NCBI GenBank assembly: GCA_002269645.1
Contig: NIVC01001638.1
Coordinates: forward strand, 186,001 to 250,000
Source: Macrostomum lignano
Taxonomy: Eukaryota
Reading direction: 5' to 3'
DNA length: 64,000 nt
The position numbers were made by a program, and so were the translations under genes. Positions 3,291 through 34,999 of this stretch are shown piece by piece. The notes under the pieces were generated by a model. The model did no database searches. It saw only the letters and a list, made by a program, of their open reading frames with translations, and was not told the origin of the DNA. How positions within the stretch are numbered: position 1 is the stretch's first letter; the number at the start of each line of letters is the position of its first letter.

Positions 3291-3735
3291 GGTAGAAGGC
3301 ATGAGGGGGCTTCTGGGACAAAATTTTTCACTTCCTTCATAATCCACCTAAATCCATTCATATTATCCCTGACAGAATCAGAAAAAAGGGGGGTCGCACT
3401 CGCTCACAAAACGTCCTCCATAATCCCATTAAATCCATCCATATTATCCCCGACAGAATCATGAAAAAGTGGAGGGGTCGCACTTGCTCCGAAAACTTCG
3501 AACATAATCGTATTAAATCCATCCATATTATCCCTGACAGAATCAGTGCATAACAGATGTCCACTAACACCTGTTATGTTCACTGACACTGACATAATCC
3601 ACTGACATCCACCCAGAAACAATCAGAAAACAATCTGCATTCTTCTCCCCACATTCAATTTGCAACGCGAAACCAGATCCCTAAAACTTTAAATCATCAG
3701 CGCAGGGTCCTTACCCTTTGAAAAAAAATCTAAAT
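3291..3735 (+). repeat. Left TIR of Polinton-1
   Basis: Reverse complement of 17099-17543 with ~3 differences; three internal sub-repeats CATAATC..TAAATCCAT.CATATTATCCC.GACAGAATCA. Confidence 0.95.
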
Positions 3736-3765
3736 TTTCTCTGAATCTTGATTGTCTTTTATATG

Positions 3766-4443
3766 CTTACGAAGCTTCGTAAATTGAAATATTTTGTCGC
3801 TAAAGATATTCACTCTAAACTACTACTTCTACTAGCAGTAGGTTAAAAACATATTTTAGAATTTTCTGCTTTTTCATTAAAGATTTTACGAAGCTTCGTA
3901 AATTGAATTTTTCTGTCGCTAAAGATATTCACTCTAAACTACTACTTCTACTAGCAGTAGGTTAAAAACATATTTTAGTATTTTCTGCTTTTTCATTAAA
4001 GAGTTTACGAAGCTTCGTAAATTGAAATTTTCTGTCGCTAAAAATATTCACTCTAAACTACTACTTCTACTAGCAGTAGGTTAAAACATATTTTAGTATT
4101 TTCTGCTTTTTCATTAAAGAGTTTACGAAGCTTCGTAAATTGAAATTTTCTGTCGCTAAAAATATTCACTCTAAACTACTACTTCTACTAGCAGTAGGTT
4201 AAAAACATATTTTAGTATTTTCTGCTTTTTCATTAAAGAGATTACGAAGCTTCGTAAATTGAAATTTTCTGTCGCTAAAGATATTCACTCTGAACTACTA
4301 CTTCTACTAGCAGTAGGTTAAAAAACATATTTTAGTATTTTCTGCTTTTTCATTAAAGAGTTTACGAAGCTTCGTAAATTGAAATTTTCTGTCGCTAAAG
4401 ATATTCACTCTGAACTATTACTTCTACTAGTAGTAGGTAAAAA
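3766..4443. repeat. Subterminal tandem array, ~5.7 x 119 bp, each unit with an 18-bp palindrome
   Basis: ACGAAGCTTCGT recurs at 3769, 3888, 4007, 4125, 4244, 4364; palindrome TTTACGAAGCTTCGTAAA; CTACT-AGC-AGTAG mini-hairpin. Confidence 0.95.
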
Positions 4444-4601
4444 ACGTGTCGAGTCAGATTCCAATTAACGAAAAAACCGAATTATGTTGATTCAGTTATT
4501 ATTTATTTTATTAATTATAAGCAGGCTTTTATTTAACGACTAATTAATTTATATAAATCACCATTTCAAACACAACAGACAGCCATGTAGTAGTCACTTC
4601 T

Positions 4602-5246
4602 TCACTCCATGATATTTACTCCGTCACCTGGGTCATCTACTTCGTCACCTGGGTCGTCTACTTCGTCACCTGGGTCATCTACTTCGTCACCTGGGTCGTC
4701 TCGAACGTCCAAGGCCCAATTGGTCAGGGCAATCTCGGCTGTGACGCCTTCTTCGTTTACGTATTCGAACGTCTCATGCTCAACTTCCAAGGCCAGACGA
4801 AATTCTTCGTCGTCCTTGGCAAAATCGACGATTGCCTTCTTGTATTTCAAAATCGTTGTAAGGCAATATCCAGTAAATGGCAGAGCTATGTAACGCATCG
4901 CTAGCTCGTAGTACGCTACATACTCTTTCGCCTTTCGGACGGTCAATCCGAATTCCTCCGCAATCTTCTCGATAGGCCTAGTTTTCGTACTGAAGACGAT
5001 TGCCCGAGCCTGCTCGAACATTCCTAGGCTTTTTAAGTTGTCTAGCGGTCGCAGACAGTCCGAAATGGTCACAAATATACTGCGGACCTCTTCGCTAGAT
5101 TTATTCCGTAGATCTTGTCCTAGGCTGGACAGCAGCGTCTTAAGCAGGCCACCGTCAATGCGAAGACCTTTTGCGGCCAGATCAGTGAGCCTCCGTTTGA
5201 GATTTCGTAGGAATGTCTCCTGCTCGTTGTCGGCATTGCGATTCAT
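4602..5246 (-). CDS. Polinton accessory protein, 214 aa, possible HTH, acidic (DDPGDEV)x4 tail
   Basis: Clean ATG ORF inside the element; KIAEEFGLTVRKAKEYV is HTH-like (inference). Confidence 0.65.
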   Translation of the reverse strand: MNRNADNEQETFLRNLKRRLTDLAAKGLRIDGGLLKTLLSSLGQDLRNKSSEEVRSIFVTISDCLRPLDNLKSLGMFEQARAIVFSTKTRPIEKIAEEFGLTVRKAKEYVAYYELAMRYIALPFTGYCLTTILKYKKAIVDFAKDDEEFRLALEVEHETFEYVNEEGVTAEIALTNWALDVRDDPGDEVDDPGDEVDDPGDEVDDPGDGVNIME

Positions 5247-5422
5247 TGGTCTCCTTCTATGTTTTTACTCTTGTTTTTTCCATCTTCTTCTAGCTTGTCA
5301 AGTTTCTCCTTAAACTTCTTCAGCTCCTCCGGCGACCAAAACGCTAACGCCTCCGCAAGCGAAATATCACTTTTCGCATGCAGCTCCTTCAATTTCTCGA
5401 TTGTTTTCTCAATGTTGCTCAT
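5243..5422 (-). CDS. Small 59-aa helical ORF (MSNIEKTIEKLKELHAK...EGDQ), below the ORF-track cutoff
   Basis: ATG at 5422; its TGA overlaps the ATG of the 4602-5246 ORF (ATGA). Confidence 0.55.
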   Translation of the reverse strand: MSNIEKTIEKLKELHAKSDISLAEALAFWSPEELKKFKEKLDKLEEDGKNKSKNIEGDQ

Positions 5423-5702
5423 TGTTGTGAAAATTGTGGCAATCGTTGTCGATAGACTTGATAGTGAATTTAGCGCATAACCCCCAGACGAGGATTATGA
5501 TTCGCTTTTATAGCTTTGGAAGGCGTGGGATTCTCTTTTTATTCTAGAATATTCTAGGAGCAGAATTCTAGAAGGAAAACCCTTTTCTTTGCTATAAATA
5601 CGCCGGAATTAGACCACCCTATCCCGTCTCTCCCACTCCCATATAATCCCCTTTACAAGCTTTCGCGCAAGGTTTTCTTTCCAACCACTTGAGGCACTTG
5701 AA

Positions 5703-6203
5703 TCATTCTGCTCTCTCTACCCCCAGCTCTTTCAGCAGTCTTCCCAATTCATTGTTAGGAGCGCACAAAACAAACCCCGCTCCTGAGCCTCCGCCGTCTC
5801 TCCTCGTGCACCAGCCCTCTCTCCCTGTGCACCCGCCCTCGCCTTCAACCCCCAACCCCAACTTTGTTTTACCAAAAATAACAGCTTTAACTAGCTTCCG
5901 AGCAATCGACTCACGAAATCCGCTTGAAGCCCCTATATTGTCTAGTCTCTTAAGCATTTCTTTGTCCCAGCGATTCTTCTCCTCAGGAAAATCTCTATAT
6001 TTAACATCGTGCCACATGCAGACAGAGTCTAGCTCGTTCACAGGCTCATGCCCAGGATGTGGATTATTGTTTTTATCTAACTGTATTTCAAGTGGATTCA
6101 AAGGCCCGCAATATTTATAGCCGGGAAGTGTCCAGCCTTTGTTTGGATGAGGAAGCTTTTCTATCAGTCCATGTGAATCTATTTTACCACCAGAGCGCTG
6201 CAT
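5703..6203 (-). CDS. Parvovirus VP1u-like phospholipase A2 (adintovirus PLA2X type)
   Basis: Ca-loop TLPGYKYCGP and catalytic D..C..HD..Y (ELDSVCMWHDVKY); C-terminal KLGLG. Confidence 0.9.
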   Translation of the reverse strand: MQRSGGKIDSHGLIEKLPHPNKGWTLPGYKYCGPLNPLEIQLDKNNNPHPGHEPVNELDSVCMWHDVKYRDFPEEKNRWDKEMLKRLDNIGASSGFRESIARKLVKAVIFGKTKLGLGVEGEGGCTGREGWCTRRDGGGSGAGFVLCAPNNELGRLLKELGVERAE

Positions 6204-6233
6204 TATTTTATTTTAAATTTTCTTTTCAAATAA

Positions 6234-7270
6234 ATGACAGATCAGAAACTTAAAAAACTCAACTACAGCGACAAAGGATTCTTTGTAGGCAAAAATGCCG
6301 TTAGTAAACTCATGGAGCTGAGTAAGGAACCAAAAGCTACAGTAGAAAAATGGCTCTCTAAGCAGGCTGTCTTTCAAGTCTATTTCCCACCAGTAAAATT
6401 TGAAAGGCCCCATTTCAGTATTTATAAACCTAATGAGGCGCACCAAGCAGATCTTCTGTTTCTCCCCAATGACTCGGGCTACAAGTATGCTCTCACAATT
6501 ACAGACGTTGCCTCCAGATATAAGGAAGCGAGACCGCTTAAGACGAAGAAGTCAGAAGCAGTTGCAGCCGCCCTCCAAGATAGTTATAAAAACTCTCCGC
6601 TCACACACCCAAAACCCTTATAACCGACCCGGGTAAAGAATTCATGGGTGCAGTGAAATCACTTATGGAAAAGAAAAATACAGAGATTCGCTATGGCAGA
6701 ACTGAGCTCCACAGAGATCAGGCTTTTGTGGAAAGATTCAATCTAACTCTAGCCAAGAGGCTATTCACTAAGCAGACAGCTGAAGAGCTGAAACTAAAAA
6801 GTGGCCAATACTATACCAAGTGGACAGACCGGCTCCCCACTGTTATAGAACAACTGAACAATGAAGTCACACGCATGACTGGATTGAAACCGTCCCATGC
6901 AATTAAACAAGACACTGTCGAACTTAAGTCATCTCATAAAACAGACAACAACACGACAACCCCACACAACACACACAGCACAAAACACACCTCGAACTAC
7001 CCTAAGCTTCCAGGAGTTGAATCACCATACATAATGACAAACTCTGAGTTTCTACGCTTTTTATATCTACCTGGAGAGCTAGAGAAGGACACTAAAAGAA
7101 GAGCTACAGATCCATACTTCAGCCTTGATGTACATAAAATAGACAGACATTTTACCTCCGACTCCGGTGACTATTACTTTTTATCTCAAACCTTTAACCC
7201 TAAATCCCCCACGCGGTCATTCACTAGAGCTGAACTCCTAGTGATACCAGCTGACACGGAAATTAATTAA
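6234..7270 (+). pseudogene. Retroviral-type DDE integrase of Polinton, one 1-bp frameshift
   Basis: HQADL..., TDVASRY, (I)TDPGKEFMG, VERFNLTL; one extra base near 6607-6610 joins ORFs 6234-6623 and 6644-7270. Confidence 0.9.
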
Positions 7271-7286
7271 AATATTAAAATAAAAA

Positions 7287-7733
7287 ATGACAAAGATTGA
7301 AACCAGAACCATCAATAAACTCAATAAAATCATTGAATCAAAGAAACCAGGTCTTATATCAATTAAAGGTGTCAAAGTAAAAATCGATCCCACGCAGCAA
7401 ATAGTTGAGTGTAATGAGCAAAGACACAGCATAACAGATGAAAAGTCAGGAGGAATCCTACCATTAGCAGCTCTTATTCCGATCATTGCAGGCGCTGTAA
7501 GTGCCGCAGGTGGTGTAGCTGGAGGTGTAGCAACTGCTGTTAAAGCTGGGAATGATAGAGCCCACCCGCTAGAATTGCAAAAGATTGCAAGAGACAAAGG
7601 TATAACAATTAAGGCAGGAGAGGGCTGCCCCGATCGTGATGATTGTGAGCATGAAAATTCTGTAAGCAAGTCTGACATTGTCAAAGCCATCATGACACTG
7701 CACAATGCTGGGTTCACAATAATGCGGATGTGA
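7287..7733 (+). CDS. Adenovirus pX(mu)-precursor-like membrane-active/core protein
   Basis: KSGGILPLAALIPIIAGAVSAAGG resembles adenoviral pX C-terminus GG(I/F)LP.LIP.IAAAIGA. Confidence 0.7.
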   Translation: MTKIETRTINKLNKIIESKKPGLISIKGVKVKIDPTQQIVECNEQRHSITDEKSGGILPLAALIPIIAGAVSAAGGVAGGVATAVKAGNDRAHPLELQKIARDKGITIKAGEGCPDRDDCEHENSVSKSDIVKAIMTLHNAGFTIMRM

Positions 7734-7857
7734 TGAGGTTTAAAATCCCACTTTATCCAGCTTCATAAACCTAACGCTACTTATAGTATGTAGAAACAGT
7801 TCAACTTTTCTATCAGGGTGGTCACCCTCAAAATTTTTTTTTATTTTAGAGAAAAAA

Positions 7858-9208
7858 ATGCCAAAAGCTAATCCAGCAAAAGATTTAGTAAATTACTTTT
7901 GTCTTGAAATGAGACGCCTTTTGAAAAATATTTGTTGACTAAGAGAAGCATGTAAACAAACGTTTAACACAGACCCTGGTCACCTGGGAAGCTATGAAAA
8001 ACAGTTGGAAATCATCAATCAATTAGAATCCAACCAGTATGCGCCTATAAAAAATCCTGCAAAGGAACACCAAGAGAGGAGTCGCAACTTAGTTAACAAA
8101 TATGAAACTCTCACTGGTGAAAAAGCAAAGTACCCACAAAATAAGCAGGAACAAGAGAAATTAGAGAAATTAATCCATTTAAAAGAGTCGGAGCTTGCCA
8201 TTGAAGAGATTAATTTTGCACAGAGGAAGTTTACAGAACATTACATAGAGTACACAATCCCAATTAAGGATACCACCACAAACATCTACGACTATAAAGA
8301 CAGCATCCAATCAGTTGTTGATCACACACTCAAAACACGCAAGACCTTTAAACTACAGATATCATTCAAGATTGCGTTTTATATGCCTGCAAAACCCACT
8401 GAGCATCTCGAGTATTACATGACAACAAAGGCAAAGCCATTCACCCCAACAGACACACTGGATCCTTTCCTTCAAGATGTCACCAAGAAAATTGAAGCGT
8501 TCACATCCAGAGGCTCCGGATGGGTCGCGGGAGGGACTCAAAGAGCAACTGTCATGGTCATGAAATATGACCCACTTAAAGCCTCCTCTTATATAGAGCT
8601 CCCGCATAAGCTTGCCGGCAAAAAAGCTTGCATAAATGTTAAAAATAAAGACAATTGCTGTGCTCTATGGGCAGTTCTTTCTGCACTTCTTCATGATGGT
8701 GTCCCTCACCACCCCGAAAGAACCTTAAATTATCAAAATTATTTTGATAATTTTGCTGCAGCAAAAAGATTTGTTTGACTTGTCTGAGTATGATAAATCT
8801 TTCAGGACACAGAATGGCGATCAAGTGTTTGACGATACTAACAAGAAAGTGATTGGGAAAATGAAGGACGAGATTGCTGGGGACATAATCACTGAATTCA
8901 TAGGGTTGAGAGCAAAGTCCTATTTTGTAAAATGTGAGTCGTCAGACCCAATTAAAAAATCAAACGGAATTCCGAAACGTGTGGTTAGGAAGGAAATTAA
9001 TGAAGCTGAATACAGAGACGCCTTGAATTGCAACAAAAAGACATCTCATGAGTTCTCAAAGCTACAATCTAAAAACCATATTATTCACACAATTCAGCAA
9101 AAGAAGATTGGACTGTCAGGTGCAGATAACAAGAGATTCATTTTTGATGACAATATTAACAGTCTACCGTTCGGGCACTGGAGATTAGGTTTAGGAGATT
9201 GGGTTTAG
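7858..9208 (+). pseudogene. Protein-primed PolB with large internal deletion
   Basis: N-terminal GSGW / SYIELP..L..K..IN..N.D..C..W segment abuts (~8745-8775) the C-terminal NKKVIGKMKDE..EFIGLRAKSY..DNKR..PFGHW segment; Exo I-III and Pol A-C motifs absent. Confidence 0.88.
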
Positions 9209-9261
9209 GAGGTGGAGATTGGGTTTAGGTTTAAGAGAAAGTTTAATAAACCTCACAAAAA

Positions 9262-9663
9262 ATGACGACAAATAACTTTCTTGAAGATTTGGCTAACGAA
9301 CTGGAAATCCCAAACTTTAGAGGAATATTTATGAGGGACACTCTGCCTGATTTTCCTCTAAGAAAAGAATGTGGCATCATGAACTTTGACACCACCGATA
9401 AGCCAGGATCTCATTGGGTTTGCTGGGTGATTGATCCCGATCGCAAGCACAAGTGTTATTACTTCGATAGCTATGGGACGGCAGTACCAGAAGAGCTAAG
9501 AAATTATATGAAGGGGAAAAATAATAAAAAAATTTATCGCTCAGACTTTATTCTCCAAGGTCTTAGCAGTGATATTTGCGGTGAGCTGTGCATGACTGTT
9601 TTGTATGCAATGACCAAAACACGAAAGACCTACAAGGAAATTATTCTTGGCTGTGTTTCATAA
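9262..9663 (+). CDS. Adenain-like cysteine protease (maturation protease)
   Basis: GSHWV (His), YFDSYG (Asp), LQ...SDICGELC (oxyanion Gln, Cys). Confidence 0.92.
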   Translation: MTTNNFLEDLANELEIPNFRGIFMRDTLPDFPLRKECGIMNFDTTDKPGSHWVCWVIDPDRKHKCYYFDSYGTAVPEELRNYMKGKNNKKIYRSDFILQGLSSDICGELCMTVLYAMTKTRKTYKEIILGCVS

Positions 9664-9667
9664 AAGT

Positions 9668-10396
9668 TCATTGTGCATTTCTCGTCGTCCTTCTTGCCGA
9701 ATTTCTTGCCGACTTTCTTTCCGCATAATGTTGAAAAACTTTCTCGAGTTCATTTTTCAGCTGACTCATGTCATCAGTACCGACCATGTTCAAGTTCATT
9801 CGAATTGATTGTTCATAAAGATCCTGAATGGTTTTGAACTCATCCTCTGAAATGAACTTATCCTCGATTGCCCTTGAAATGTACCCTATGATTGATGTGT
9901 GCACCCCTTTCTCTTTTACTTGCTTCTCCTGTAGCTGCTTTAGTTTTTTTCGCCTGTTTCGCGCTACTGCTCCAGTAATTGCTGAAATAAGTCCACATGC
10001 AGCACCTACTGAACCAAGTGGAATTGCGATTGGGGCTGTGATGGCTGGCAACACTGAGACAGCTGCAGCAGATCCAGTTAGAACAGACACAGATCCTAGA
10101 ATCATATTGCTGTAGTCGAAAAATTTACAGTGGTTGTCATAGCGCTTAATTTTCTTTGTGTTGTGGAAAATATTTTTTTCAAGATCATCGCGCATTTTTT
10201 GAATCTCCACCAGTCGAAACTGTTGAGAGTTACAAGTAATGACGGGGTAGAGTTTTTGCTGCTCATATTGGGGTGCATTCAGATTCGGTGCATTCAGGCT
10301 TTGTGTGTTCGAATTCGGTGCCATTGAGTTTGGTGCTGTCGGTATTTTAGGTTCAACGTATTGAGACTGATCGTATAGAGAATTTTGTTGGGCCAT
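9668..10396 (-). CDS. Conserved Polinton membrane/coiled-coil protein (gasderminX/PW-like)
   Basis: FRL..I, central hydrophobic G/A-rich hairpin, RAIEDKFISEDEF motif recalled from Polinton proteins. Confidence 0.6.
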   Translation of the reverse strand: MAQQNSLYDQSQYVEPKIPTAPNSMAPNSNTQSLNAPNLNAPQYEQQKLYPVITCNSQQFRLVEIQKMRDDLEKNIFHNTKKIKRYDNHCKFFDYSNMILGSVSVLTGSAAAVSVLPAITAPIAIPLGSVGAACGLISAITGAVARNRRKKLKQLQEKQVKEKGVHTSIIGYISRAIEDKFISEDEFKTIQDLYEQSIRMNLNMVGTDDMSQLKNELEKVFQHYAERKSARNSARRTTRNAQ

Positions 10397-10488
10397 TTTT
10401 TTCTCTAGAAAAAATAAAAAAAATTATAAAACTATCCGGTTGAAAGATCTGTTTTCTTTTTGATAATTCCATCTGCACCGCCGGTTGT

Positions 10489-11999
10489 CTAGGCGGCTCT
10501 CGTGACGCCGGAGGATCGCGAGTCCAGCAGGCAGCGGCTGGGCGGCTGACGTTTGAGAGCGTGCCGGATTACTCCGTCGGGGTCCAGAGCTCCTTCTACT
10601 CGATCTGTAGACATGACCGGACGAGCAGCAGATTCTGCTTCATCAATAGCAATATCACGAAGATTGAGTGTTCTCTCCAGACGATCAAGCCTCCTTATTA
10701 TTTTACCCCAAGAGCTATACATTCCGTTTAGATAGCTACTGTGTGATACATCCTTTCTCTTTAATGCTTCAAGTCTTTCTTTGATTCGATCATGCAACGA
10801 TGTTGACTGAGTCATGAACTCTTCTAAATTATTGACTTTAACTGTGTTGGTTGCGACGTTTTCTTTAATTCTATCATGCAACACTGTTGACTGGTTCATG
10901 AACTCTTCTAAATTATTTACTTTAGCTGTGTTTGTGAAAACTCCTCCTTCGAGAATACGCATCCGTCTATCAGTGGAATTTCCCAGAAGATTAACTGATG
11001 ATCTCAAGCCGTTGATTAGCGAGACTATCGAAGTTATTTCTGACCTTAGTTCATTAGTTGCGTTTAACAACGGCACATAAAGCGGGTCCATGAGAAATGC
11101 CCGCAGACAAATTGCCCGCCGAGATTTGCCCGTGGAGATTTGCCCGCCGAGCTTTTCCCGCGGAGATTTGCCCGCAGTGCATTTTGCCTGTGAGCGAATT
11201 GCCTGTGGAGATTTGCCCGCCGAGAATTGCCCGCCGAGATTTGCCCGCAGTGCAATTTGCCCGCGAGCGAGTTGCCCGCCGAGTTTTTTCCCGCCGAGTT
11301 TTTTCCCGCCGAGGTTTGCCCGCAATGCTTTTTTCCTGCAGCGCATTTAGCGACGCGGCAGATTTTGTCGATCTGCATTGCCTTCCCAATGCTTAGTACG
11401 TGTTAATCTCAATAAAGAGATTTACACGATCAAAACGTTTTGATAGTAACTGCATATCAAATGCATATTTTTTTTTGGGGGGGGGGCAGTGCAGACAGAA
11501 TCCAGCTGCCAAATGCGCTGCAGGAAAAAAGCATTGCGGGCAAACCTCGGCGGGAAAAAACTCGGCGGGCAACTCGCTCGCGGGCAAATTGCACTGCGGG
11601 CAAACCTCGGCGGGCAATTCTCGGCGGGCAAATCTCCACAGGCAATTCGCTCACGGGCAAAATGCACTGCGGGCAAATCTCCGCGGGAAAAGCTCGGCAG
11701 GCAAATCTCCACGGGCAAATCTCCTGCGGGCAAATCTCGGCGGGCAATTCGTCTGCGGGCATTTCTCGGGCTCCCACATAAAGCTTATCACTTTCAAACT
11801 TCTGCCTAGCTACTTTAAGCCTGAGATCTTCCATGTTGATTTGCAACTGGTGCATGGAGCGCTCTAGGGCTTTCAGTCTGTTTTTATTCAGTTTGATCTC
11901 TGGGATCTCTTCATCAATGTTAATGTAGCGCTTGTCAAGGAAGGAAGTTGTGAGAGTGCTGTTGCCTGTAGTTGATTCACCTGCAAAATTAATAGACAT
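10489..11999 (-). pseudogene. Coiled-coil (possible fibre-like) gene of ~269 aa interrupted by the foldback element
   Basis: Removing 11084-11774 plus one TSD restores the frame: ...FESDKLYV|PLLNATNEL...; internal duplicated NT.KVNNLEEFM.QST.LHDRIKE. Confidence 0.8.
11084..11774. mobile_element. Non-autonomous foldback/MULE-like DNA transposon, 691 bp
   Basis: 10-bp TSD CACATAAAGC (11074-11083 and 11775-11784); ~260-bp inverted arms built of ~15-bp TTGCCCGCCGAGA repeats. Confidence 0.88.
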
Positions 12000-12014
12000 T
12001 TTTTAAATGAAAAA

Positions 12015-12812
12015 TTAAATTAAAATTCTTTTCTCCTTATTAATCATGACAAACTGATAGGGTTGGTTCCACTTTTCATAGCATATGTTAACAAATTCCT
12101 CCTGTGATATTGTTCTGTTAGAGTTCTTAGCTGGATATGTAATGTGAGCTGGGGCAATGACCTCATTATAAAATCGTTTCAGTCGATCTTGTGGTATGGT
12201 TGGGAAAAGGAGAATCAAATTACAGTTACCTCTAATTGTTTTATTTGGCAGTTCAAATCAGTTTTGGGCAATGTAAATAACATTGCAATTATTATGTCTA
12301 CCCCGGGTGAAATAATTTTCTATCTGTTTCTGGGGACCGGTCATGCAGTCATCAAAGACAATCAGGTGCTTTCTCTCCTTTTCTAGTTCATCAGGTTGAG
12401 GTAAGAGTTTAGTTTTAGGATCTATCTGTGGATCTCCATAAGTGAAAACTTTAATGTTTTGCCATTTTTCATTGTCTGGGATGTGCTTTGCGTATTCAGT
12501 GGCTACAACTTCCGGGTAGTTGAGGTCTTTTTGATGTCTAAAACATTGAATAATATCTTCCTTGTTGAGTTTGTTCTGTAGGCCCGCTACTAGCATTTTA
12601 TACTCATCTTGATACAGAGTGGGTGAATAGATATGTAGTGTGTCATAATCGAGGAATCCAGGTCTGAGGAGCATGTTAAAAACTCTGAAGGTTTTCCCTG
12701 ACCCAGATGAGCCAACAACAATGCATCGGAAGTGCCCTGGAATTATCTCGTTGTGAGCAAATTTTATCTGATTGCGTGTCCAGTGGGGATGAAAGTCGTT
12801 TGTGAAGTCCAT
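12015..12812 (-). pseudogene. A32/FtsK-type genome packaging ATPase with one in-frame TGA
   Basis: Walker A GSSGSGKT, Walker B LIVFDD, RGRH..C.VIYIAQ; TGA at 12258-12260, same frame continues FELPNKTIRGNCN. Confidence 0.92.
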
Positions 12813-12844
12813 TTTTTATGTAAAAAAACTTTTTCTTTTTAAAC

Positions 12845-13010
12845 TTGTGTATTTAAGACGCGTGTGTCTTTTTTCGGGATGTGTATGTGTGTGTCTCTTT
12901 GCGGGATGTGTGTGTCTTTTTTCGGGTTGTGTGTGTCTTTTTTTCGGGTTGTGTGTGTCTTTTTTTTTCTACTAGTCCTACATCCGACTAGTCCTACACC
13001 CTCACACCTC
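12845..13010. repeat. Short tandem repeats (GTGTGTGTCTTTTTTCGGG units; CTAGTCCTACA x2) upstream of the ATPase
   Basis: Visible direct repeats. Confidence 0.7.
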
Positions 13011-13033
13011 TTTTACCGTCAGGGTGCACCAAA

Positions 13034-13414: not shown

Positions 13415-13430
13415 CTTTTTAAATAGAAAT

Positions 13431-14642: not shown

Positions 14643-14672
14643 TTCTTATTTTATTTTATTTTTAGTTAAAAA

Positions 14673-22114: not shown

Positions 22115-22116
22115 AG

Positions 22117-25710: not shown

Positions 25711-26084
25711 TAGCGGGGGGCAGCCCTGAAGCGCATTAGCTAAGTTAGGAAGTGTTCCCGCTTCTACCGAGACCTCTTTCCTACTGTTCGTTATCCCTTT
25801 CCCCTTCATCGATCCAGTCTTCTTGTGCGGTCCCGGCCTTCTCCGGCTTTCGTCTCCAGGCGGGGTCCAGGTCAACTCCTCATCAGTCTCCCCCGCGGGC
25901 CGGTTCCAACCAGTTCCAGTTTTGCTGTCGGTCCGGGCCGCGTTCGCACTGTAATGAAAGGGTGAGCTCCGGGCGTGTCCTCATCTAACCTCTCTGCTTT
26001 CAGTTGCTTGCCCTCTCTACTGTTGCTATTTTCTGCCTGATTTTATCCTAGAGCTCTCTTGAATTCGTTTCAGATTTCTAAGTC

Positions 26085-26618
26085 TTATAGAAAGCGCTCG
26101 CGAGCCATGGCAATCTCCCCAGGCACGTCCTCGTCCTCATCGTCGAAGAGAAGGAGCGTAGCGGCTGATGATATTGAGGCCCGGCGGGAGGCAGTCGAAG
26201 CAGAGGCGGCAGCAGCGGAAACGGGCGCTGCAGAGACGGGCGCAGCAGAGACAGAGGCGGCAGCAGCGGAGCCAGAGACAGGCGCGGCAGAGGCAGAGAC
26301 AGGACCGGCTGTGGTCAGCTCCTCAACAGAGACCTCAAAGAGGGTGGCTGAGGCGGCAGTCAAATCGGAGGCAGTAGCAGCAGGGGCGCCGTTCACAACC
26401 CCTCCAATAGCCAGCAGCGGGAGGTCGAAAACTTCAGACTCGGTGTCACGATCATAGGCCATAGCCCAAGCTAAATATTGATCAACCTCCCAATTATCAG
26501 TTCCGTTGTTTTCAGTGCCTAGGGGGACTATGTGTTCGGGGATATCACCGTCGAGGCTAGTTAACTCTTCAGTCGGGCGATTTTTATCCCAGAGGTTGGA
26601 TAGAGCTCGGCGGGACAT
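26085..26618 (-). CDS. Unknown ORF with Ala/Ser-rich repeat, in the Polinton-2 module
   Basis: 177-aa ATG ORF downstream of the PC4-like gene, same strand. Confidence 0.45.
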   Translation of the reverse strand: MSRRALSNLWDKNRPTEELTSLDGDIPEHIVPLGTENNGTDNWEVDQYLAWAMAYDRDTESEVFDLPLLAIGGVVNGAPAATASDLTAASATLFEVSVEELTTAGPVSASAAPVSGSAAAASVSAAPVSAAPVSAAAASASTASRRASISSAATLLLFDDEDEDVPGEIAMARERFL

Positions 26619-26734
26619 GTTGGAATCAACAGAGAGTAAAGTATCAGAGCAAGGATGGGGTTTGGCTCTCTGGAGAGAGAGGAAACACTAATTATATAGT
26701 AGGTCCAAGTGAGGTGGTGTGAGCCAATAGGAAA

Positions 26735-27280
26735 CTACCAGTGCCGACCCTCGTCATACAGATTTTCCCAGGGCGGGGATTGGTAGGGTTTGAGACCCAC
26801 AACCTGAAGAACGTCCTGCAGATTTTCCTCCTCAGTCCTGGCTACCGGAGGGGTCTCTGTCTTGGCTCGCTTGGCAGGCGGTGGGGCCTCAGGTGCCGGC
26901 TTAAAGAGCTTGTCCAAACGGGAGGCAAACATCCGGCGCCACAGTTCAGGCGTGAATTCGATCGTGTAGCGCCAATTAAACTTTGGGTCCACGTTGAGCC
27001 AATCGCGCAGCAAACGAATCCTTCCTTGCGAAGCCTCGACAGCCTTGAAATTGCCCAACACGACCCGCTTGTACACGTGAAGGCGGGCAGCAGCCTCCAG
27101 GTCAGGGCGTGCAGACTCGAGCTTCTTCCACTCTGGTTCGGTCAAGTAGATTGCAGGGAAGCCGTCCTTCCACACTCCAGCCTCGTTGGTGCAGAGACGC
27201 CGAATTTCAATCAAGTTGTGCTCAGTTTCAAATGTGGGCTTCCGCGCCACAAAGTTTTCGTATAGAGAGTTAAAAGACAT
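26735..27280 (-). CDS. Tandem PC4-like ssDNA-binding protein
   Basis: IEIRR....AG.WKDG...IYLTEPEWKKL and a second RIRLLRDW...YTIEFTPELWRRM resemble the PC4 signature IR...G..GI.L..EQW..L; PPAKRAK NLS. Confidence 0.65.
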   Translation of the reverse strand: MSFNSLYENFVARKPTFETEHNLIEIRRLCTNEAGVWKDGFPAIYLTEPEWKKLESARPDLEAAARLHVYKRVVLGNFKAVEASQGRIRLLRDWLNVDPKFNWRYTIEFTPELWRRMFASRLDKLFKPAPEAPPPAKRAKTETPPVARTEEENLQDVLQVVGLKPYQSPPWENLYDEGRHW

Positions 27281-27519
27281 GATTTAGCAGCAGCAGCAGA
27301 GAGCTCTCTGGCAGCCGTGCAGCGCCTTATATACCCCCGGATGGAGGGTGGGGTGGGTGGTGATTTTGGGGGTGATTTTTGATGATTTTGGTTGGTTTTT
27401 GGCGATTTGACCAATAACCAGCAAGCTGGGCAGATTTTTTAGTATATATACAGACCCCCAGAACAGGGATAGAGAGATAATCCTTCTCTCTCCGCTCTCT
27501 AACACTCTCTGTTTGCAAA
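27281..27519. promoter_or_regulatory. Putative bidirectional promoter between the PC4-like gene and pPolB
   Basis: 239 bp between divergent ATGs; TATA-like CTTATATAC (~27327) and AGTATATATAC (~27441). Confidence 0.45.
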
Positions 27520-30500
27520 ATGTCAAAGCGCAGCGCAGCACCAACTGCTTTCCTGGCTGATAAGAGGCAGCGTCTTTATGGTAAGTTTTTAATTAATTTC
27601 TGGCCAGTTGTTTATCAGTCTAGACTAGAGTTACTAGGGTGGGGTGCTGCGGCAGGAGGTGAGCTGCTGCGACAGCTGCAGGGGTTTAGCGCTGTCTAGA
27701 CAAGTTTCAGCACGGTGAGCTGCGCGTGTAAACAAAGACTGGGGCTGCAGATAGGGTGCGTGTACGTAGCTGCCCAGACAAGCTGCAGCTGAGGTGCTGA
27801 TAAGAAATTGCTGCAAAAACAGATAATCGTTGGGTGCGGTGACAGAGAGTTGCTGGGGAGGACTAGACATCATTTAGCAGCAACAGCTGCAGGATCCGTG
27901 GGAATTGGAGGGGTGCAGCAGAGTAAACAACAAAGACTGGCGCTGCTGCGCTGGCTACACGGGTCTAGACTAGAGTCACTAGGCAGGGGGGGGGGTACGT
28001 TGCTGATAAGAAATTGGCAGAGGCTGTAACAGATAATCGTTGGGGTAAAATTGCAGACAAGTTTCAGCAGGGCGGTGGCAGAGAGTTGCTGGGTCTGATA
28101 ATCGGTGTGCGGGGACAGCGTGAACTCTGATAAGAAATTGGTGCAGATTTCTGGCGCTGCCCAGACAGGCTGCAGCTGGGGTACAGATAAGAAATTGGCA
28201 GGGGCTGTAACAGAGAGTTGCTGGGGCGGGCTAGACACGTTTCAGCAGCAACAGCTGCAGGGTCTGTGGGCAGCAGAGTAAACAAAGACTCTTGCAGAAT
28301 AGAGTTGGTGAATTGCTGCTTGCTGCGACATAGGGCTGATAGGAACTTGCTAGGGCGGGGGAATGACAGATTCTTCTGGTTTGTTATCTCCTTGTGTTTT
28401 TTTCAGACGCGTTTGTCCCGCCTGTACAGCCAGAATCTGTTACCGGACCGGGTGAGTTATCTAGCCCCCATTCCCCAGACAGACCCGGGCTGACTCACAC
28501 TCCCCTTCATTCCCTGCAGGTTTTACGGCCCGGCTAGATAATCAGCGCAAGCTGCCCAAGTTTAGGGCAAAGGGTGTTGAGTATGTGGTGCGTATTAGTA
28601 ACACCGAAGATTTACGCTAGACATTCGCTAGTATGCTCGAAGTTTTCAAGCAGGATTTGGCGGGGGAAGACTTTATGGCCGCGAAATTCGAGAGCGACAA
28701 CATGCTCAAAGCCGCCCATACTCCCCCCAGTGCGTGCAGCCCGCATGACAGCCGAATTATTATTCAAGCACATTGACAAGATTGTGCAGTCGGAGGCAAC
28801 TGTCTTGACGGGCAACTTTTCTATCCGACTGCTAAAGGCCTGGGTGCCTCGAGGTGGCTGCTCCCTCGAGAACAAGCATCTGGAGGACCGCCATGTCTTC
28901 TCCAAGCACTATGTCTGCATCAACAACACTGACAAGAGGTGCCTGCTGCGAGCGCTTGTTGTCGCCTGCGCCTACCTGCAATTTGTGGCCAAGACAATCA
29001 CCGAGCAACTGTGGCGCACGATCAAGGCCAATTCACTCAAGCAGACTAAGCTGGTGGCTCAGCTGCAAATCAAAGCCGGTCTCTACACGGTAAGTTGGGC
29101 ACTGATTTTCCTGATAAGAATTACTAAAAGAACCATTTTTCTGCTATTTTCATGGATTACTAAAAGAATTTTTACATAGTATCATGGAATACTAAAAGAA
29201 CCATACTCTGATAAGAATTTTTACGATAAGAATTACTAAAAGAACCATTTTCTGGTAGGAATTTTTACATAGTATCAGGGAATACTAAAATAAATATTTT
29301 ACCCCCACACAGACTCTTCAAACCGTCTCGCAGGCCGGTCCTTTCGGGGTGGATGTACTACCCGAGGCGATCCGTGCCCTGAACCGGCTGCATCCTGGCC
29401 ACAACTTTGGTGTACGAGTGTACCGGGCAGAGGAGGCCAACAGGTGCATCTTCAACCTGCCTGGCATCGAGATTCTGCACCTCCACCTGATTGAGCAGCA
29501 CTTCAATGTGGTTACCAAGCTGCCAGCGTTTTTCGGCAGCCACCACTACTGCTCCAAGTGCGAGATGGCCTATGACTGCACCAACGCTGAGCACAAGTGT
29601 GCTGACGCCTGGAGTACATGCAAGACGCCGGGCTCCAACTGCAAGGTCAACCGCGCATATGTGAGATGCCATGATTGCGGGCTAAATTGTTATAATGCTC
29701 AGTGTCTAGAGAATCACAAGCGCAAGAATAAGGCGGGTAGATCTCGCTGTGATTCAGTCCACGTTTGCGGCACGTGTGGCTATCTAGAAGAACTGAAAGT
29801 AGGCCAGGCCCCCGAGCATCAGTGCGGTCACTCCAAGTATCCAGTCTGCAAGCAGTACGATGAAACAGCCACCTACGAGTGCTTTGTCACCCCGCCCAAA
29901 GCCAAAGAGTCTAGCGCCCCGTACGTTTACTACGATTTCGAGACGTACGTTGACTCTGGCAAGCAGCACCGGGTACACTTGGTTACGGCAGCTACCTCCT
30001 GCGAGGCGTGTCCCAAACTCTTCCCCAGGCCCCGCTGCAGCGCGTGCGGGGGTTGCACCGCTCAGCCAATTGCATTGCGGGACGCGATTTGGCGCGCGAT
30101 TTTACGAGCTGTGTCTCCCACAATGACTGTGCTTGCGGGATGCGAGAGTTTTTATCAGTCGGGCCTCACTCTATCGATGCATTTTACTGCTGGCTGACTA
30201 GCGTGTTCAAGCAGGGGGCAATTGCTATTGCGCACAATGGCTCTGCGTATGACGCATTCCTCCTGCTCGGAGCCCTACTCAATGGACTGGCCAAGAAAAA
30301 GCCCCAGGTAATCTTCCAGAACAGCCGCCTGATGTACATGAAGAGTGACAAGATCACGTTCAAGGACAGCCTCAACTTTATCCCTATTGGTCTGGCGCAA
30401 TTCCCAAAGGCACTTGGTTTGAGCACCCAACTGACCAAAGGAGATTTCCCGCACGTGTTGAATCAGCCGCAAAACTGGGGCTACGTAGGACCCTACTGCT

Positions 30501-32694
30501 CGATTGATATGTACGGAGGGAAAAAGAATAAGCAACACGACTCCATCGCTGACTGGCTGGCCCAGCAGGAGGGCCGAGTGTTTAATTTCAACAAGGAGTA
30601 CCTGGACTATTGCCTGCAGGACACGCTAATATTGCGGGAAGGCTGTCTAAAGTACGGCCGCCTAATTAAGGACATTTGCGGACTGGACGCATTTGTCCAA
30701 TCCAACACCATTGCGGGCTTGGCCATGGCAGTATTCACCACCAAGTTTATGGTGCCCAACACTCTTGGGGTGATTTCTCGCCGGTCAGATGTGCAGTCGC
30801 ACAAGGCGCGGTGCTGGCTTGCACATTTGAATGCAACCGAGTTTGGCGGCCGGTTGCGGACAGCCGACTTTGGCGGCGAGGCTTTCGCCATAGGCCGAAA
30901 GGTGTATGGCTTCGACCCAGAGACTAGGACGGTGCTCCAGTTTCATGGCTGCTTCCACCATGGCTGTCCCAAGTGCTTTTTCAACGGCGACGTGCTGCAC
31001 CCGCTCAAGAACCAGCCAATGCGGGCAATTTATGAGGAGACTGAGCGCTTCACCCGGCTGCTCTCTACAGCCTACAATGTACGTGTTCTGTGGGAGCACG
31101 ACTATCAGGGCGGGGGAGCGCCAGTCCAGCAGCCTATTCGTCTGGAGGAAGCCCTGTTTGGCGGCCGCACCGAGGCCTTTGTTCCGCACGCCGAGGCCAC
31201 TGAGACTGTGGAGCTGCGCTATAGGGATGTGGTAAGTTTTTTCAAAATTTCTCACACACACGCACACACACACAGTTGACTTGCGTTTGAGTTTAGCCTA
31301 CTTATCCTCTAGGTGTCGCTCTACCCGACTGTCAACAAGTTTGACAAGTACCCTGTCGGGCACCCGGTTCACCACCCCGAGCCTCATCTACTAGATGAGC
31401 AGCAGCTGGCTCGGTATTTTGGCATCGCCGAGGTCTCAATTCTGCCGCCAACCAATCTTCACATCCCGCTACTGCCCGCCAAGATTAGCAAGAAGCTGGT
31501 TTTTGGCCTCTGCCGCGTCTGCATGGAGACACAGTGCAGCAGCGAGTGTACACACACTGACGCTGAGAGAATGCTCCGCGGCACGTGGTCGACCCCAGAG
31601 CTCCACAAAGCCCTGCAGTTGGGTTACAAGCTGCAGTCAGTTCATGCCCTGGCGTATTGGACCGAGACTCGGTCCGGGCTGTTTGCAGATTATGTAAACA
31701 CCTTTTTGAAGCTCAAAGCCGAGTCTAGCGGTTCGCCGGGGATGACTGAGGGCGCCAAGGCTGCCTACATGGCCAGCTTTTTCGAGCGCGAAGGTGTCCG
31801 GCTTGACAAGGTGGAAGAGAACCCTGGTCTGCGCTTTGTGGCCAAGATTTTTCTAAACTCGTAAGTTGGGGAGACCGTGTTTTTCTACTTACAGTAGCCA
31901 GATATACTAACTGCTAAAATTTATTTTTCCCTGCAGGCTCTGGGGAAAATTCTGCCAGCGCGACGACTTGACCTCCACAGAGATTGTGGACAGCTACGAG
32001 GCGTGGCTCCAGCGTCTGACAGACCCCTCCATCAAGGTCAAGTCGTGCGAGCCTGTTGGGGAGAGCTTCATGATGCTCGAGTATAAGCCCCGATTTGGCG
32101 GTGCCAGCGAGCGAGCATTTAAGTACGCCAATGTACCAATTGGCGTTTTCACCACCTCCCATGCCCCGCTGCGACTCTACGAGGCTCTGGAGGGGCTAGG
32201 ACCAGAGTCATTTACGCCGATACCGATTCGTAAGTAATTTTTTCACTGTCTCTGTGTCTCTTTCTCCCCCAACACTTTTTTATCCTCCTCCTCCTCCCAG
32301 GGTCGTATACCGGTGCTCTCCGGGCGAGTACGAGCCTCCGGGCGGTTCGAGTTTGGGGCAGTGGACTGACGAGGTACCTGCCGGCTGCCGTATGGTACAG
32401 TTCACCACTGGGGGCCCCAAGCTCTACCGCTATGTGGTGGAGAAGCCCGACGGGTCGGTGTACTCGGTACTCAAGTGCAAGGGCATCCGAGTCACACCCG
32501 AGATTTCCGAGCGCGAGGACGAGCTGCAGGAAATTCTGCGCCACGGCTGCTCTGTAAGCCTGCCCCAGGTCCAGTTCAGGCGCGATATGGCTAGCTGTAC
32601 AATCAGGACCCTGGAGATGGACAAGACTTTCCAGCGAGTAATGACTAAGAGAGTGTATGGGGCCGCCAGCCGTCCGTATGGCTTTCGGGAGTGA
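27520..32694 (+). pseudogene. Protein-primed DNA PolB (Polinton-like), 7 exons, ~1276 aa, with 1 stop and 3 one-base frameshifts
   Basis: Exons 27520-27580, 28407-28451, 28520-29089, 29313(or 29334)-31231, 31313-31860, 31937-32229, 32301-32694; all GT..AG with compatible phases; ExoI YYDFET, ExoII HNGSAYD, ExoIII YCLQDT, inserted FHGCFHHGC nuclease-like domain, YRDV|VSLYP, LNS|LWGKF, YADTDS|. Confidence 0.9.
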
Positions 32695-33236
32695 GTGATA
32701 ACGATCTGTCTTAGGGGAGCGGTTTTCGTGAGTGATAAGGATCGGTCTTTGTACGTCTCCCAGCCTGGGATTCCCCTATGTGCACACTTGGGATCCCTTC
32801 AAGTGTTAAAACTCCCATTTGACACCTATTCCCCCGGGGCGGTTTGTAGCCCGTTGGTCCACCTCTTGGAGTAGAACTCCTGCAAAACGGACATAAACTG
32901 CTGCGCCGATTAGCGTCCCGATAGCGCAATCGAAATACGTTTCCGCTCCCGAGCCCTCTCACGGGTTCAATCGGGCTGAAAGATGTTGACGCGTTCAAAA
33001 GCGTCGTGATAATAATATATTGTGGGTTAGGGCGGCTAAAAACTCCCTTTTGTTTTTTGTTTAATGCACCTGTGGGCTAGACAATTGCAGCAATATTTAC
33101 ACCTGCAGCACCTACGTTTGTATAGCTTTATTAATCTGATATGTTTCAAAAGTGAATATGCTTTATACATATGAGTCTGTATTTTACAACTATATATTTA
33201 CGCCTGCTGATATTTGCACTCGCGCATGCATACCAT

Positions 33237-33596
33237 TATTAATCCGATATGTATCGAAAGTACACTTTGTAAACCTGCTTTATACATTAAACTGCTATGT
33301 ATCGAAAGTAGACTTTGTAAACCTGCTTTATACATTAATCTGATATGTTCTTTACGCTTTATACACACATGTATTGAAAGTAAGTCTGCATTATACTTGT
33401 ATCTACCTGTGTTTTATTAGCGCCTACTACACTAATATTGGTTTTGTCAGCCTAACTGAGAATAAAGCCATCCAAAGTGAGAATCCTGCCTACGCTGAAT
33501 ACGAAGGGCCTAGCTGCGTTCAGCCTAGTCTATGAGCCATAGACTATAAAGGACAAGCAAAGTTTTAAAAGACCAATCGATTCTCACATTGGATGG
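33237..33596 (-). repeat. Inverted partner of the 18600-18970 repeat
   Basis: Direct sequence comparison; ends ACATTGGATGG. Confidence 0.93.
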
Positions 33597-33734
33597 CTTT
33601 TTATCACTTTGCTTGTCCTTTATTGTCTTTGGCCCATAGACTAAGGCTGCACGCAGCCAGGCCCTTCGCAGTCAGCGTAGACAGGATTCTCACTTTGGAT
33701 GGCTTTATTCTCAGTTAGGCTGACAAAACCAATA
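33436..33734. repeat. Long imperfect palindrome (arms ~128 bp, 42-bp spacer)
   Basis: 33436-33563 versus 33606-33734 in reverse complement, ~93% identical. Confidence 0.88.
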
Positions 33735-33929
33735 CGTACCCGCTTTGTATTTTGTCTGCTTTACCGTCTGTCAATATATCGATAATATGCACCTACATTG
33801 TGTGTTTTTTTGCTGCTCATATACCTATTATGCACCATTATTCACACCTACCAATATGTTTTATCTACTTTTTTATGTAAATATACTCAATTTCGCCTAC
33901 TATAAGTAGTTTTCACTAGCCTAATATCA

Positions 33930-34240
33930 TTGACTACATATCGGTGTACACATACATATCGGGAGAGTGTACTGGGGAGAGTGTACTGGGAAGAGTGTAC
34001 TGGGTAGAGTGTACTGGGGAGAGTGTACTGGGAAGAGTGTACTGGGTAGAGTGTACTGGGGAGAGTGTTCACTCGGGGTGCCTGCGGCATACATATCGGG
34101 GTACATATCGGGAGAGTGTGCATACATATCAGGAGGGTCGCCTGCGGCATGGGCGCCTGCGGCATACATATCGGGGTACATATCGGGAGAGTGCGCATAC
34201 ATGTCGGGAGGGTCGCCTGCGGCTGGACGGCGCTTGGCGA
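33930..34240. repeat. Minisatellites (GAGTGTACTGGG(G/T)A 14-mers; CATACATATCGGG/GCCTGCGGCAT blocks)
   Basis: Visible tandem repeats. Confidence 0.85.
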
Positions 34241-34765
34241 TACGATACGATACGCGTATCGATCACCTAGTGATCGGGGCGCCAGCCAATGAGAGGCGAG
34301 GAGGGTTGACACCCACCTCACCTCCAAAATCAACGGAAACGGGGTTGTATAGTAGTGAGGTAGACCCAAAGTAGTGAGAGACCATATTTAAAATATTTCA
34401 CTATGTACCCAAGGCCGGGCAATTTGAGGCCGCGGAGGCAATAGAGCTTGTGCATGTGGGAGAAATAATTTCTCTACACGGAGCCAGCGTGCCTATGAGG
34501 CCGCCTGCTGGGGGAGAGATTTTCTCTCCCGAAGTCAGCGTGCTCGGGGGTCGCGTGCATGGGAGAGAGAAGTAGCTATTATTATTACTCCATAATTATG
34601 AAATCAGTGAGGTTTGAATACTAGATTTCATGTTTTCTAGTAGAAGTTAATCTCAGTTTTTCAGGGCATTTTTTTCTCGAATACTGTGTTGGGATAGCTA
34701 TTTCAGCCATAAGAGCTTTGTACGTCAATCGATTTTAGTATATGTTGATCTAAGGGGGATTTGGT

Positions 34766-34795
34766 TGTCCCAGAAGCCCCATCATGACAACTACT
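34766..34795 (-). repeat. Polinton-type right terminus, putative end of Polinton-2
   Basis: TGTCCCAGAAGCCCCATCATGACAACTACT matches the Polinton-1 terminal 30-mer at 26/30; weaker second copy at 34959-34986. Confidence 0.7.
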
Positions 34796-34999
34796 ATCCC
34801 GTTTAGATCAGTAGTTAAAATTATGACGATGAGGTAGTTGGTTTTTGGTATTAGGGCATGATGTTTAAATAGATTTTAGTACTCGTAGATAATGATTTTT
34901 TGTTGCACCAGAAAAGGGGTAGTGGTTTTTTTCCCAAAACTTTGCGGAGGGAATTTGCACCAGAACTCCCCTCATGACAACTTAGTGTCATAGTGGGTG

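Follow-up and report, generated by a model that had tools for sequence, protein, structure and literature searches.

An intron-bearing pPolB element without capsid or integrase genes beside a defective Polinton in Macrostomum lignano

A 64,000-nt stretch of the Macrostomum lignano genome (contig NIVC01001638.1, positions 186,001 to 250,000; hereafter the window) carries, next to a Polinton (Polinton-1), a member of a discrete transposon family, Element-2, which has neither capsid nor integrase in every complete copy read. We consider, with a probability of roughly 0.57, that Element-2 is a Polinton-derived satellite that replicates itself and would depend in trans on a Polinton-type integrase for its insertion, and that the two elements lie side by side by chance, as independent mobile families in a repeat-dense region; this is the best explanation of the locus as a whole (Table 1).

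Table 1. Features of the locus (window coordinates)
Feature	Position	Strand	Basis
Polinton-1 copy (GSGW-type pPolB), defective	3291..17543	.	TIR 3382-3745/17088-17451, 99%; ends read; gene matches
Polinton-1 PLA2-like ORF	5703..6203	-	PF08398, E=6e-14
Polinton-1 rve integrase, split over two frames in this copy	6234..7270	+	PF00665, E=2e-5
Polinton-1 pPolB remnant	7939..9208	+	about 2.5 kb with Exo and Pol motifs gone at ~8750
Polinton-1 adenovirus-type cysteine protease	9262..9663	+	PF00770
Polinton-1 packaging ATPase	12258..12812	-	PF04665
Polinton-1 major capsid protein (MCP)	14673..15959	+	PF21738, E=5e-5
Polinton-1 probable penton (minor capsid protein)	15979..16842	+	position after MCP; no Pfam match
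Gag/protease fragment, presumably Gypsy-like, between Polinton-1 and Element-2	17544..18599	+	translation, aspartic-protease-like motif; no Pfam match
Element-2, pPolB TIR element without capsid/integrase; left TIR truncated, Gypsy insert inside	18600..34356	+	
Element-2 left TIR remnant	18600..18958	.	99% inverted to 33238-33596
ORF-X, 3' part (accessory)	19698..20127	-	
Gypsy-type retroelement insert	20128..26089	-	1103-aa RT-RNaseH-integrase ORF; 5-bp duplication at borders
ORF-X, 5' part	26090..26618	-	
PC4-like ssDNA-binding protein	26735..27280	-	30% over 114 aa, E=4e-10, to a PF02229-matching Polinton ORF
pPolB-2, at least six exons	28400..32694	+	PF03175; GT..AG joints; introns in genomic copies; phi29 fold/PDB matches
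Element-2 right TIR, terminal AGTAGT at 34351-34356	33238..34356	.	
Decayed Polinton-1-family TIR ends, outside Element-2	34690..34986	.	27/31 match to Polinton-1 end

The Polinton-1 copy of the window has TIRs of 364 nt that are 99% alike, and no target-site duplication (TSD) at its two ends. The initial annotation had credited it with MCP, penton, protease, ATPase, PLA2 and integrase genes, and with a pPolB devoid of Exo and Pol motifs. This description holds: Pfam matches were obtained for PLA2, rve integrase, Adeno_PX, adenoviral protease, A32 ATPase and double jelly-roll MCP, the penton being presumed from its position and, in part, from general knowledge, and the pPolB retains its GSGW N-terminus and its C-terminus, with none of the ExoI, ExoII, PolA, PolB and PolC patterns that we take to be diagnostic in any of six frames. 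The integrase is a single 362-aa frame in two other copies. The initial annotation had asked whether the polymerase deletion is fixed in the family, and this was not borne out: the segment is present in 11/11 other loci (partial reading) and in the three whole copies read, where pPolB is broken into 2-4 frames, and no other copy among the 40 scored spans the 2.5-kb deletion junction. The copy on C522 (16.5 kb, AGTAG ends, 6-bp TSD) has pPolB, integrase and virion genes inside AG-ended TIRs, as befits a Polinton/Maverick. The window copy is an ordinary decaying member of this family, and the deletion is private to it.

Element-2 is a multi-copy family with a native length of 8.7-10.5 kb, the greater span of the window copy being due to the Gypsy interruption. 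Its termini read 5'-ACTACT...AGTAGT-3' and not the 5'-AG...CT-3' of Polintons/Mavericks; its TIRs (~1.2 kb, 93-98.6%) are long, as in those elements. A 6-bp TSD flanks 18/18 end pairs (12 complete copies and 6 more), as well as 2/2 end pairs of subfamily 2b. The same capsid-less layout is found in two subfamilies whose dS is saturated (one polymerase-bearing 2b copy was read), and two copies at different sites are 99.4% alike over 8 kb, which points to recent movement. Thirteen of 14 end pairs are no longer than 9.9 kb; the exception (C271, 40.6 kb) contains a nested Polinton. C271 and C2525 (17.5 kb), the Polinton-sized end pairs considered as autonomous parents, both proved to be nestings.

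The question raised by the initial annotation, whether pPolB-2 modules ever carry an MCP, has a negative answer in the copies read: the virion and integrase proteins of Polinton-1 gave no tblastn match inside the ends of 12/12 complete copies. Integrase, transposase and capsid families were likewise absent among 79 frames of at least 60 aa taken from two copies outside their polymerase, a Pfam search on short frames that a small intron-split integrase could escape. MCP, penton, protease, packaging ATPase and retroviral-like integrase, all part of the Polinton/Maverick definition, were not found in Element-2. The statement that neither capsid nor integrase lies near pPolB-2 was right for the capsid; an integrase does lie nearby, and is that of the Gypsy retroelement inserted in Element-2 (22317-25628).

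The second pPolB, described initially as bearing an FHGCFHHGC insert and accompanied by a PC4-like ORF, was confirmed at 26735-32694 (PF03175). That it sits in a TIR element of its own and is split by spliceosomal introns had been overlooked. pPolB-2 comprises a vOTU domain, a Cys-rich region, Exo, a VSR-like insert and the palm, and is interrupted by five introns (28452-28519, 29090-29312, 31232-31312, 31861-31936 and 32230-32300), whereas Polinton/Maverick genes are intronless by definition. The five GT..AG joints were found in contigs from RNA-like runs of four studies; these runs are presumed to be RNA and the contigs matched at 88%, so that the signal is that of the family and not of the window copy. 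In 17 genomic copies, 68 intron positions could be located, and the intron is present at every one of them. The window copy is frameshifted near 28723, 30052 and 32200, and exons 3-6 are open and in phase in 4/12 complete copies; dN/dS values of 0.08-0.20 over the exons (pairs not independent) indicate purifying selection. Exo and Pol motifs are present in 15-17 of the 17 copies, as in a protein-primed family B polymerase, and the VSR-like insert motif in 17/17. The top PDB match to the fold model is the phi29 polymerase. The 5' start of the gene was not located, nor was a terminal-protein domain in the part modelled, whose N-terminal 107 residues have a pLDDT below 50.

As to the proximity of the two elements, the initial annotation had proposed a bipartite system in which Polinton-1, devoid of polymerase, pairs with Element-2. 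The complementary gene content that inspired it was correctly observed in the window, pPolB is broken in the three whole Polinton-1 copies, and one Element-2 copy sits within a Polinton-1 PLA2 gene; moreover, 4/19 Element-2-type loci have Polinton DNA at a distance of 5 kb or less, vs 0/14 control stretches (duplicates C3314 and C3940 and the window excluded). This enrichment is not significant (p=0.095; p=0.32 for Polinton-1 alone), two of the four neighbours belong to another family, and the trend weakened from 4/15 (p=0.057) when four loci were added, three of them known by their ends only. The terminal sequence said to be shared (34770-34797, 34960-34986) lies 400-630 nt beyond the true end of Element-2 at 34356, in decayed ends that match a TIR pair on C957 flanking a Polinton-1 pPolB match, and the best local match between the two termini proper is 8 nt. 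Juxtaposition is not a rule either, and the duplicate locus C3314 has Element-2 without Polinton-1. With the deletion private to the window copy, a dependence of Polinton-1 on its neighbour's polymerase is contradicted by the very test that the initial annotation had set for its refutation, and complementary gene loss fixed in both partners was not found, which makes the reciprocal system highly improbable. What stands is its one-way half: a pPolB-2 family without capsid or integrase in 12/12 copies.

How, then, would such an element be integrated? Element-2 appears to retain a set for copying linear DNA (TIRs with a trinucleotide-repeat end, a full pPolB and a PC4-like ssDNA-binding protein) and to have lost capsid, protease, ATPase and integrase. 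Its spliced mRNA would yield pPolB-2, which would carry out protein-primed amplification of an excised linear copy. Duplications that are always 6 bp long, at exact ends, are characteristic of rve integrases, and the occurrence of such duplications in an element without an integrase of its own implies that the enzyme is supplied from elsewhere: Element-2 probably relies on full-size relatives in the same genome, one of whose Polinton-type rve integrases would insert it in trans. The genome contains no fewer than three Polinton families with an integrase; the ends read, those of three full-size families, start with AGTAG, not ACTAC, so recognition of Element-2 ends by resident integrases is an assumption. 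That movement in trans does happen is indicated by non-coding elements of 4.1 kb and 6-9.5 kb, which have Element-2 ends and are multi-copy; they would borrow both polymerase and integrase. A three-tier arrangement can be tentatively envisaged, with Polintons giving the integrase, an old, intron-bearing, capsid-less and strictly nuclear pPolB satellite, and non-coding palindromic elements parasitising both.

The mismatch between the ends of Element-2 and those of the resident AGTAG families is also what one would expect had Element-2 long persisted as a reduced derivative of an ACTAC-ended cognate, be it a Polinton or an exogenous polintovirus, which provides or once provided the integrase and is here rare, extinct or absent from the assembly. 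The nearest outside relatives are indeed intronless pPolBs of 1200-1500 aa, one cluster of which lies on 17-19-kb contigs, the size of a whole polintovirus, and an adintovirus polymerase is the top BFVD fold match. We nevertheless regard this origin as rather unlikely: a search with an intronless relative yielded only split copies among the 34 of 990 candidates that were scored, both Polinton-sized end pairs are nestings, and the recent movement and the layout common to two old subfamilies argue against it. The genome searches scored 34-91 of 59-990 candidates, a depth at which a rare autonomous relative could escape; scans of viral contigs (window exon, multiple alignment and two further queries) gave no confirmed locus. 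Bidnavirus-type polymerases occupy ranks 2-6 of the same fold search and termini are common to bidnavirus segments (PMC8502044), so that Element-2 might be one segment of a bidnavirus-like virus whose sister segments, sharing its termini, carry capsid or integrase; end candidates (266 and 219) do outnumber polymerase candidates (90). No coding content was found, however, in the 4.1-kb (17 of 35 listed frames scanned) and 6.7-kb (central 4.9 kb read) end pairs tried as such segments, and the three polymerase-free interiors read are non-coding or hold a nested Gypsy only, several intermediate-size pairs being left out (interiors left out: C100, C3682, C1580, C4573, C125, C977, C1651 and C558). 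We hold this reading to be very improbable.

An absence of helpers with matching ends, as found here, would be of no consequence if Element-2 integrated by itself, with staggered nicks made by its VSR-like nuclease and the ends joined by pPolB or by host repair. A D-G-x-D...FHGCxxHGC pattern is retained in most copies, E. coli Vsr aligns weakly to the insert, at the right place between Exo and palm (E=0.18), and a JGI homolog bears the name 'very short patch repair protein'. Against this, VSR-type pPolB2 occurs in marine nematodes and molluscs within ordinary Polintons that do carry an integrase, according to 10.1101/2023.08.22.554363. The constant duplications and exact ends point to an rve integrase. 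Vsr itself is a mismatch nickase. Self-integration therefore seems improbable, and we favour integration of the satellite in trans.

Non-autonomous, MITE-like DNA transposons owe their movement to an enzyme of another element, acting in trans. Element-2 would have this in common with them; unlike them, it encodes a replicase of more than 1000 aa under purifying selection and appears to support non-coding satellites. The closest likeness is to the VSR-fused pPolB2 Polintons of a marine nematode and molluscs (10.1101/2023.08.22.554363), with a PF03175-like pPolB containing vOTU and a VSR-like insert, long TIRs and a 6-bp TSD; Element-2 differs in being half their size, in its five spliceosomal introns and 5'-ACTAC ends, and in the lack of integrase, MCP, penton, protease and ATPase. 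That survey set a threshold of five Polinton proteins in 20 kb, which Element-2 would not have passed. In the accessible part of PMC8097293, vertebrate Mavericks have a 6-bp TSD as the norm, trinucleotide-repeat ends and, in one eel family, a 5'-AC start, the 5'-(ACT)2 of Element-2 not being listed there; unlike Element-2, they are intronless, 12.7-24.6 kb long and endowed with eight core genes. Transpovirons, cytoplasmic linear plasmids and fungal pMVREs (PMC11071308, PMC13215967 and PMC3671162) are also polinton-derived, have lost the virion module and retain TIRs and pPolB or a derivative (a pPolB-helicase fusion in transpovirons); they are plasmids or giant-virus parasites of protists and fungi, whereas Element-2 is a nuclear animal element with a 6-bp TSD and host splicing. 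Bidnaviruses and bidnaparvoviruses, as described in PMC8502044 and 10.1101/2024.03.25.586562, share an Alpha-class PolB and ITRs with Element-2, which has no NS1 or VP gene, integrates exactly with a TSD, and showed no coding sister segment in the three interiors read. A literature search returned no report of a capsid-less, integrase-less, intron-bearing pPolB element of this kind.

To our knowledge, it is still debated if Polintons should be seen as transposons or as endogenous viruses, transposition never having been directly shown. An element that has lost all virion genes, gained host-type introns and still spreads under purifying selection suggests that a pPolB element can live entirely within the cells of an animal and that its integration need not depend on an enzyme of its own, and it exposes a blind spot of Polinton surveys. 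The three-tier system, if true, would show in a living organism the step that has been proposed to lead from polintoviruses to replicons without a capsid; it would also represent a class of self-synthesising transposons missed in other animals by five-gene Polinton screens and intron-blind searches. The host being a tractable model flatworm in which Element-2 is transcribed and spliced, it should be possible to identify the helper and to observe linear intermediates.

Concerning the remaining genes, no LTR pair was found around the Gypsy-type insert. ORF-X, ~337 aa when whole, is missing from some Element-2 copies and had no Pfam or Atlas match, nor any family. The single-sequence fold of the PC4-like protein (pLDDT 37) was unusable, and its Atlas score of 0.86 serves as a lead only; its ORF has a dN/dS of 0.16.

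The window, which comes from a large, repeat-rich eukaryotic assembly, contains two pairs of long inverted repeats and therefore two separate elements: Polinton-1, which bears the virion genes, and the capsid-less Element-2.

Features of the window, with positions in the window
Feature	Position	Remarks
Polinton-1	3291-17543	PLA2, rve integrase, Adeno_PX, protease, ATPase, MCP (Pfam)
Inverted repeats, first pair	3382-3745/17088-17451	99%
119-bp unit x5.7	3767-4445	immediately inside left TIR of Polinton-1
Unmatched segment	11083-11775	unmatched in three whole Polinton-1 copies; may be a small foldback insert
14-bp-unit inverted arrays	11094-11347, 11536-11769	within Polinton-1
Element-2	18600-34356	left TIR truncated at 18600
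Inverted repeats, second pair	18600-18958/33238-33596	99%
Gypsy-type insert	20128-26089	interrupts Element-2
Glycine-rich ORFs, duplicated	49700-50257, 58368-59277, 63136-63999	probably host genes
Thr-rich 33-bp-repeat ORF	51769-52656	probably host gene

Element-2 is a family of its own, mobile, transcribed and selected, without integrase or capsid. The large exon of its polymerase occurs in at least 40 copies (91-99%; 90 candidates). Both ends were present at 12 of the 17 loci read; these copies measure 8.7-10.5 kb, start with ACTACTA, finish with TAGTAGT and are all flanked by matching 6-bp TSDs, as are six further end pairs (18/18 in total, every TSD different). The TIRs span ~1.2 kb. Among 266 candidates for the ends, the 40 scored gave 14 pairs, 13 of them at 1.3-9.9 kb; the last (C271:276939-317558), its TSD intact, measures 40.6 kb because a full-size Polinton is nested in it along with further inserts. 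The family carries a PC4-like gene (an assignment supported via a related Polinton ORF), the polymerase and, optionally, ORF-X, for which no known family was found. Polinton-1 virion and integrase proteins used as queries had no match within Element-2 ends, and in two copies the sequence other than the polymerase exons gave 79 frames of at least 60 aa, none of which matched an integrase, transposase or capsid family, the two stray sub-threshold matches being to unrelated families. Note that one copy (contig C1158, L038-L039) has its last polymerase exon replaced by an inverted ORF-X/PC4 duplicate, with ends and TSD still intact.

The nearest named proteins to the polymerase are Macrostomum lignano gene models (up to 96% identity), from which this flatworm is taken as the host. 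The gene is split by five introns whose donors read GT(A/G)AGT and whose acceptors read CAG or TAG; three of the introns sit within motifs A, B and C. Introns 1-5 were located in 12, 8, 17, 17 and 14 of the 17 genomic copies, with no absence seen, and vary in length whereas the exons are conserved. Precisely these introns are skipped in contigs of four RNA-like runs from four studies (joints in 3, 2, 1, 4 and 4 of 4 runs), the RNA status of the runs being guessed and the contigs reporting the family rather than the window copy. For the exons, dN/dS comes to 0.08-0.20 between family members and, at saturated dS, to 0.08-0.13 against a second subfamily (pairwise, non-independent comparisons). 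Catalytic patterns are present in 15-17 of the 17 copies, and exons 3-6 are open and in phase in 4 of the 12 complete ones; the window copy has three frameshifts. A profile and the predicted fold of a database gene model match phi29 polymerase as well as adintovirus and bidnavirus-type polymerases. The FHGC insert aligns weakly to E. coli Vsr, which agrees with the pPolB2 polymerases carrying a fused VSR domain in marine nematodes and molluscs (10.1101/2023.08.22.554363).

Element-2 works like a Polinton reduced to its replication module. It departs from Polintons in having no integrase or virion genes, in its end motif and in its introns; Mavericks of vertebrates are reported to be intronless (PMC8097293). 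Capsid-less pPolB replicons are known, namely transpovirons, linear plasmids and the fungal pMVRE lineage (PMC3671162, PMC11071308, PMC13215967, as available). An integrated, intron-bearing, integrase-less animal pPolB family was not found in the full-text literature searched, including the accessible parts of PMC8502044, PMC5718144, 10.64898/2026.10.13.758929, 10.1101/2024.03.25.586562 and PMC3014272; Repbase, subscription papers and supplements may contain one. The words Polinton and Maverick are absent from the main text of PMC5730564.

The initial annotation had proposed a reciprocal system in which Polinton-1 supplies packaging and integration and Element-2 replication. Its observation that the Polinton-1 pPolB lacks Exo and Pol motifs was borne out: none of the patterns tested is present in this GSGW-type polymerase. 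Rather than being fixed in all copies, the deletion is private to the window copy among the loci scored and read. Indeed, an 801-nt query spanning the junction matched end-to-end in the window alone, the other 39 of the 40 scored (the best of 549 candidates) starting at the junction, and all 39 non-window matches to a 221-nt junction query (scored among 515 candidates) were one-sided. All 11 Polinton-1 loci read elsewhere have, upstream, at least one motif missing from the window copy (PolC in 10, PolB in 9). Three whole copies each retain the 2.5-kb segment, plus integrase and MCP; in one of them the ends read AGTAG and are flanked by a 6-bp TSD. Their pPolB is spread over 2-4 frames, in which decay and assembly indels are not distinguishable, and this counts against full autonomy. 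A TSD was looked for at the ends of the window copy and none was found.

Nor do the two elements share a terminal sequence, as had been claimed: the terminus in question agrees with the Polinton-1 end at 27/31 bases but is situated beyond the boundary of Element-2, and the true end of Element-2 shows no such agreement. A TIR pair similar to this terminus surrounds a Polinton-1 polymerase match on contig C957. The locus recurs as a duplicate on contig C3314, where Element-2 is present together with the two flanks and Polinton-1 is absent. When four Polinton families were tested, their DNA lay within 5 kb of, or interrupted, 4/19 Element-2 loci versus 0/14 control stretches taken from those contigs (p=0.095), a possible mild enrichment; for Polinton-1 alone the count is 2/19 (p=0.32). 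With a private deletion, differing ends and no special tie, the reciprocal model is refuted and keeps almost no credence; its one-way part, Element-2 as a satellite, is likely, since Element-2 has neither integrase nor capsid.

By analogy with Polinton biology (PMC11071308, as accessible), pPolB would copy a linear form of Element-2, protein-primed from the repeat ends and assisted by the PC4-like protein, and an rve integrase would insert it, yielding the 6-bp TSD. As Element-2 has no integrase of its own, the inserting enzyme must be supplied by another source. The genome holds at least three Polinton families with an integrase; those with ends read start with AGTAG, versus ACTAC in Element-2. 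Recognition of Element-2 ends by resident integrases is thus an assumption, though a smaller one in view of the Mavericks published with 5'-AC ends (PMC8097293, section 7). A hidden cognate parent would remove the mismatch and is the least improbable alternative, though we think it unlikely: with an intronless relative as query for an autonomous ACTAC-ended parent, the best 34 of 990 candidates gave split copies only. Two Polinton-sized end pairs considered as such parents both proved to be nestings. Self-integration through a VSR-like domain we hold to be improbable. More doubtful still is a bidnavirus-like segment.

Satellite behavior also agrees with the non-coding elements that have Element-2 ends: they are multi-copy and young, and movement in trans therefore occurs. 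One, of 4.1 kb, is found in three places (C1923, C1300 and C1242, L107:515-4646), with a 6-bp TSD in the one copy read; a copy on C428 is a chimera of an arm of this element and a polymerase half. Another family, on C440 and ~30 other contigs (L118), is 6-9.5 kb long, near-palindromic and apparently non-coding, has the ends of the second subfamily and is young (copies 97-100% alike). Several more full-size Polinton families (C114, C393, C2466, C506, C925 and C2285; L068-L084) have intronless pPolB frames of 1125-1478 aa, and two of these families have a PC4 gene akin to that of Element-2. The second subfamily itself (C566, L081-L082; one copy read) is 9.5 kb long, with ACTACG ends, a 6-bp TSD and a polymerase split likewise, 58-71% alike in amino acids to that of Element-2.
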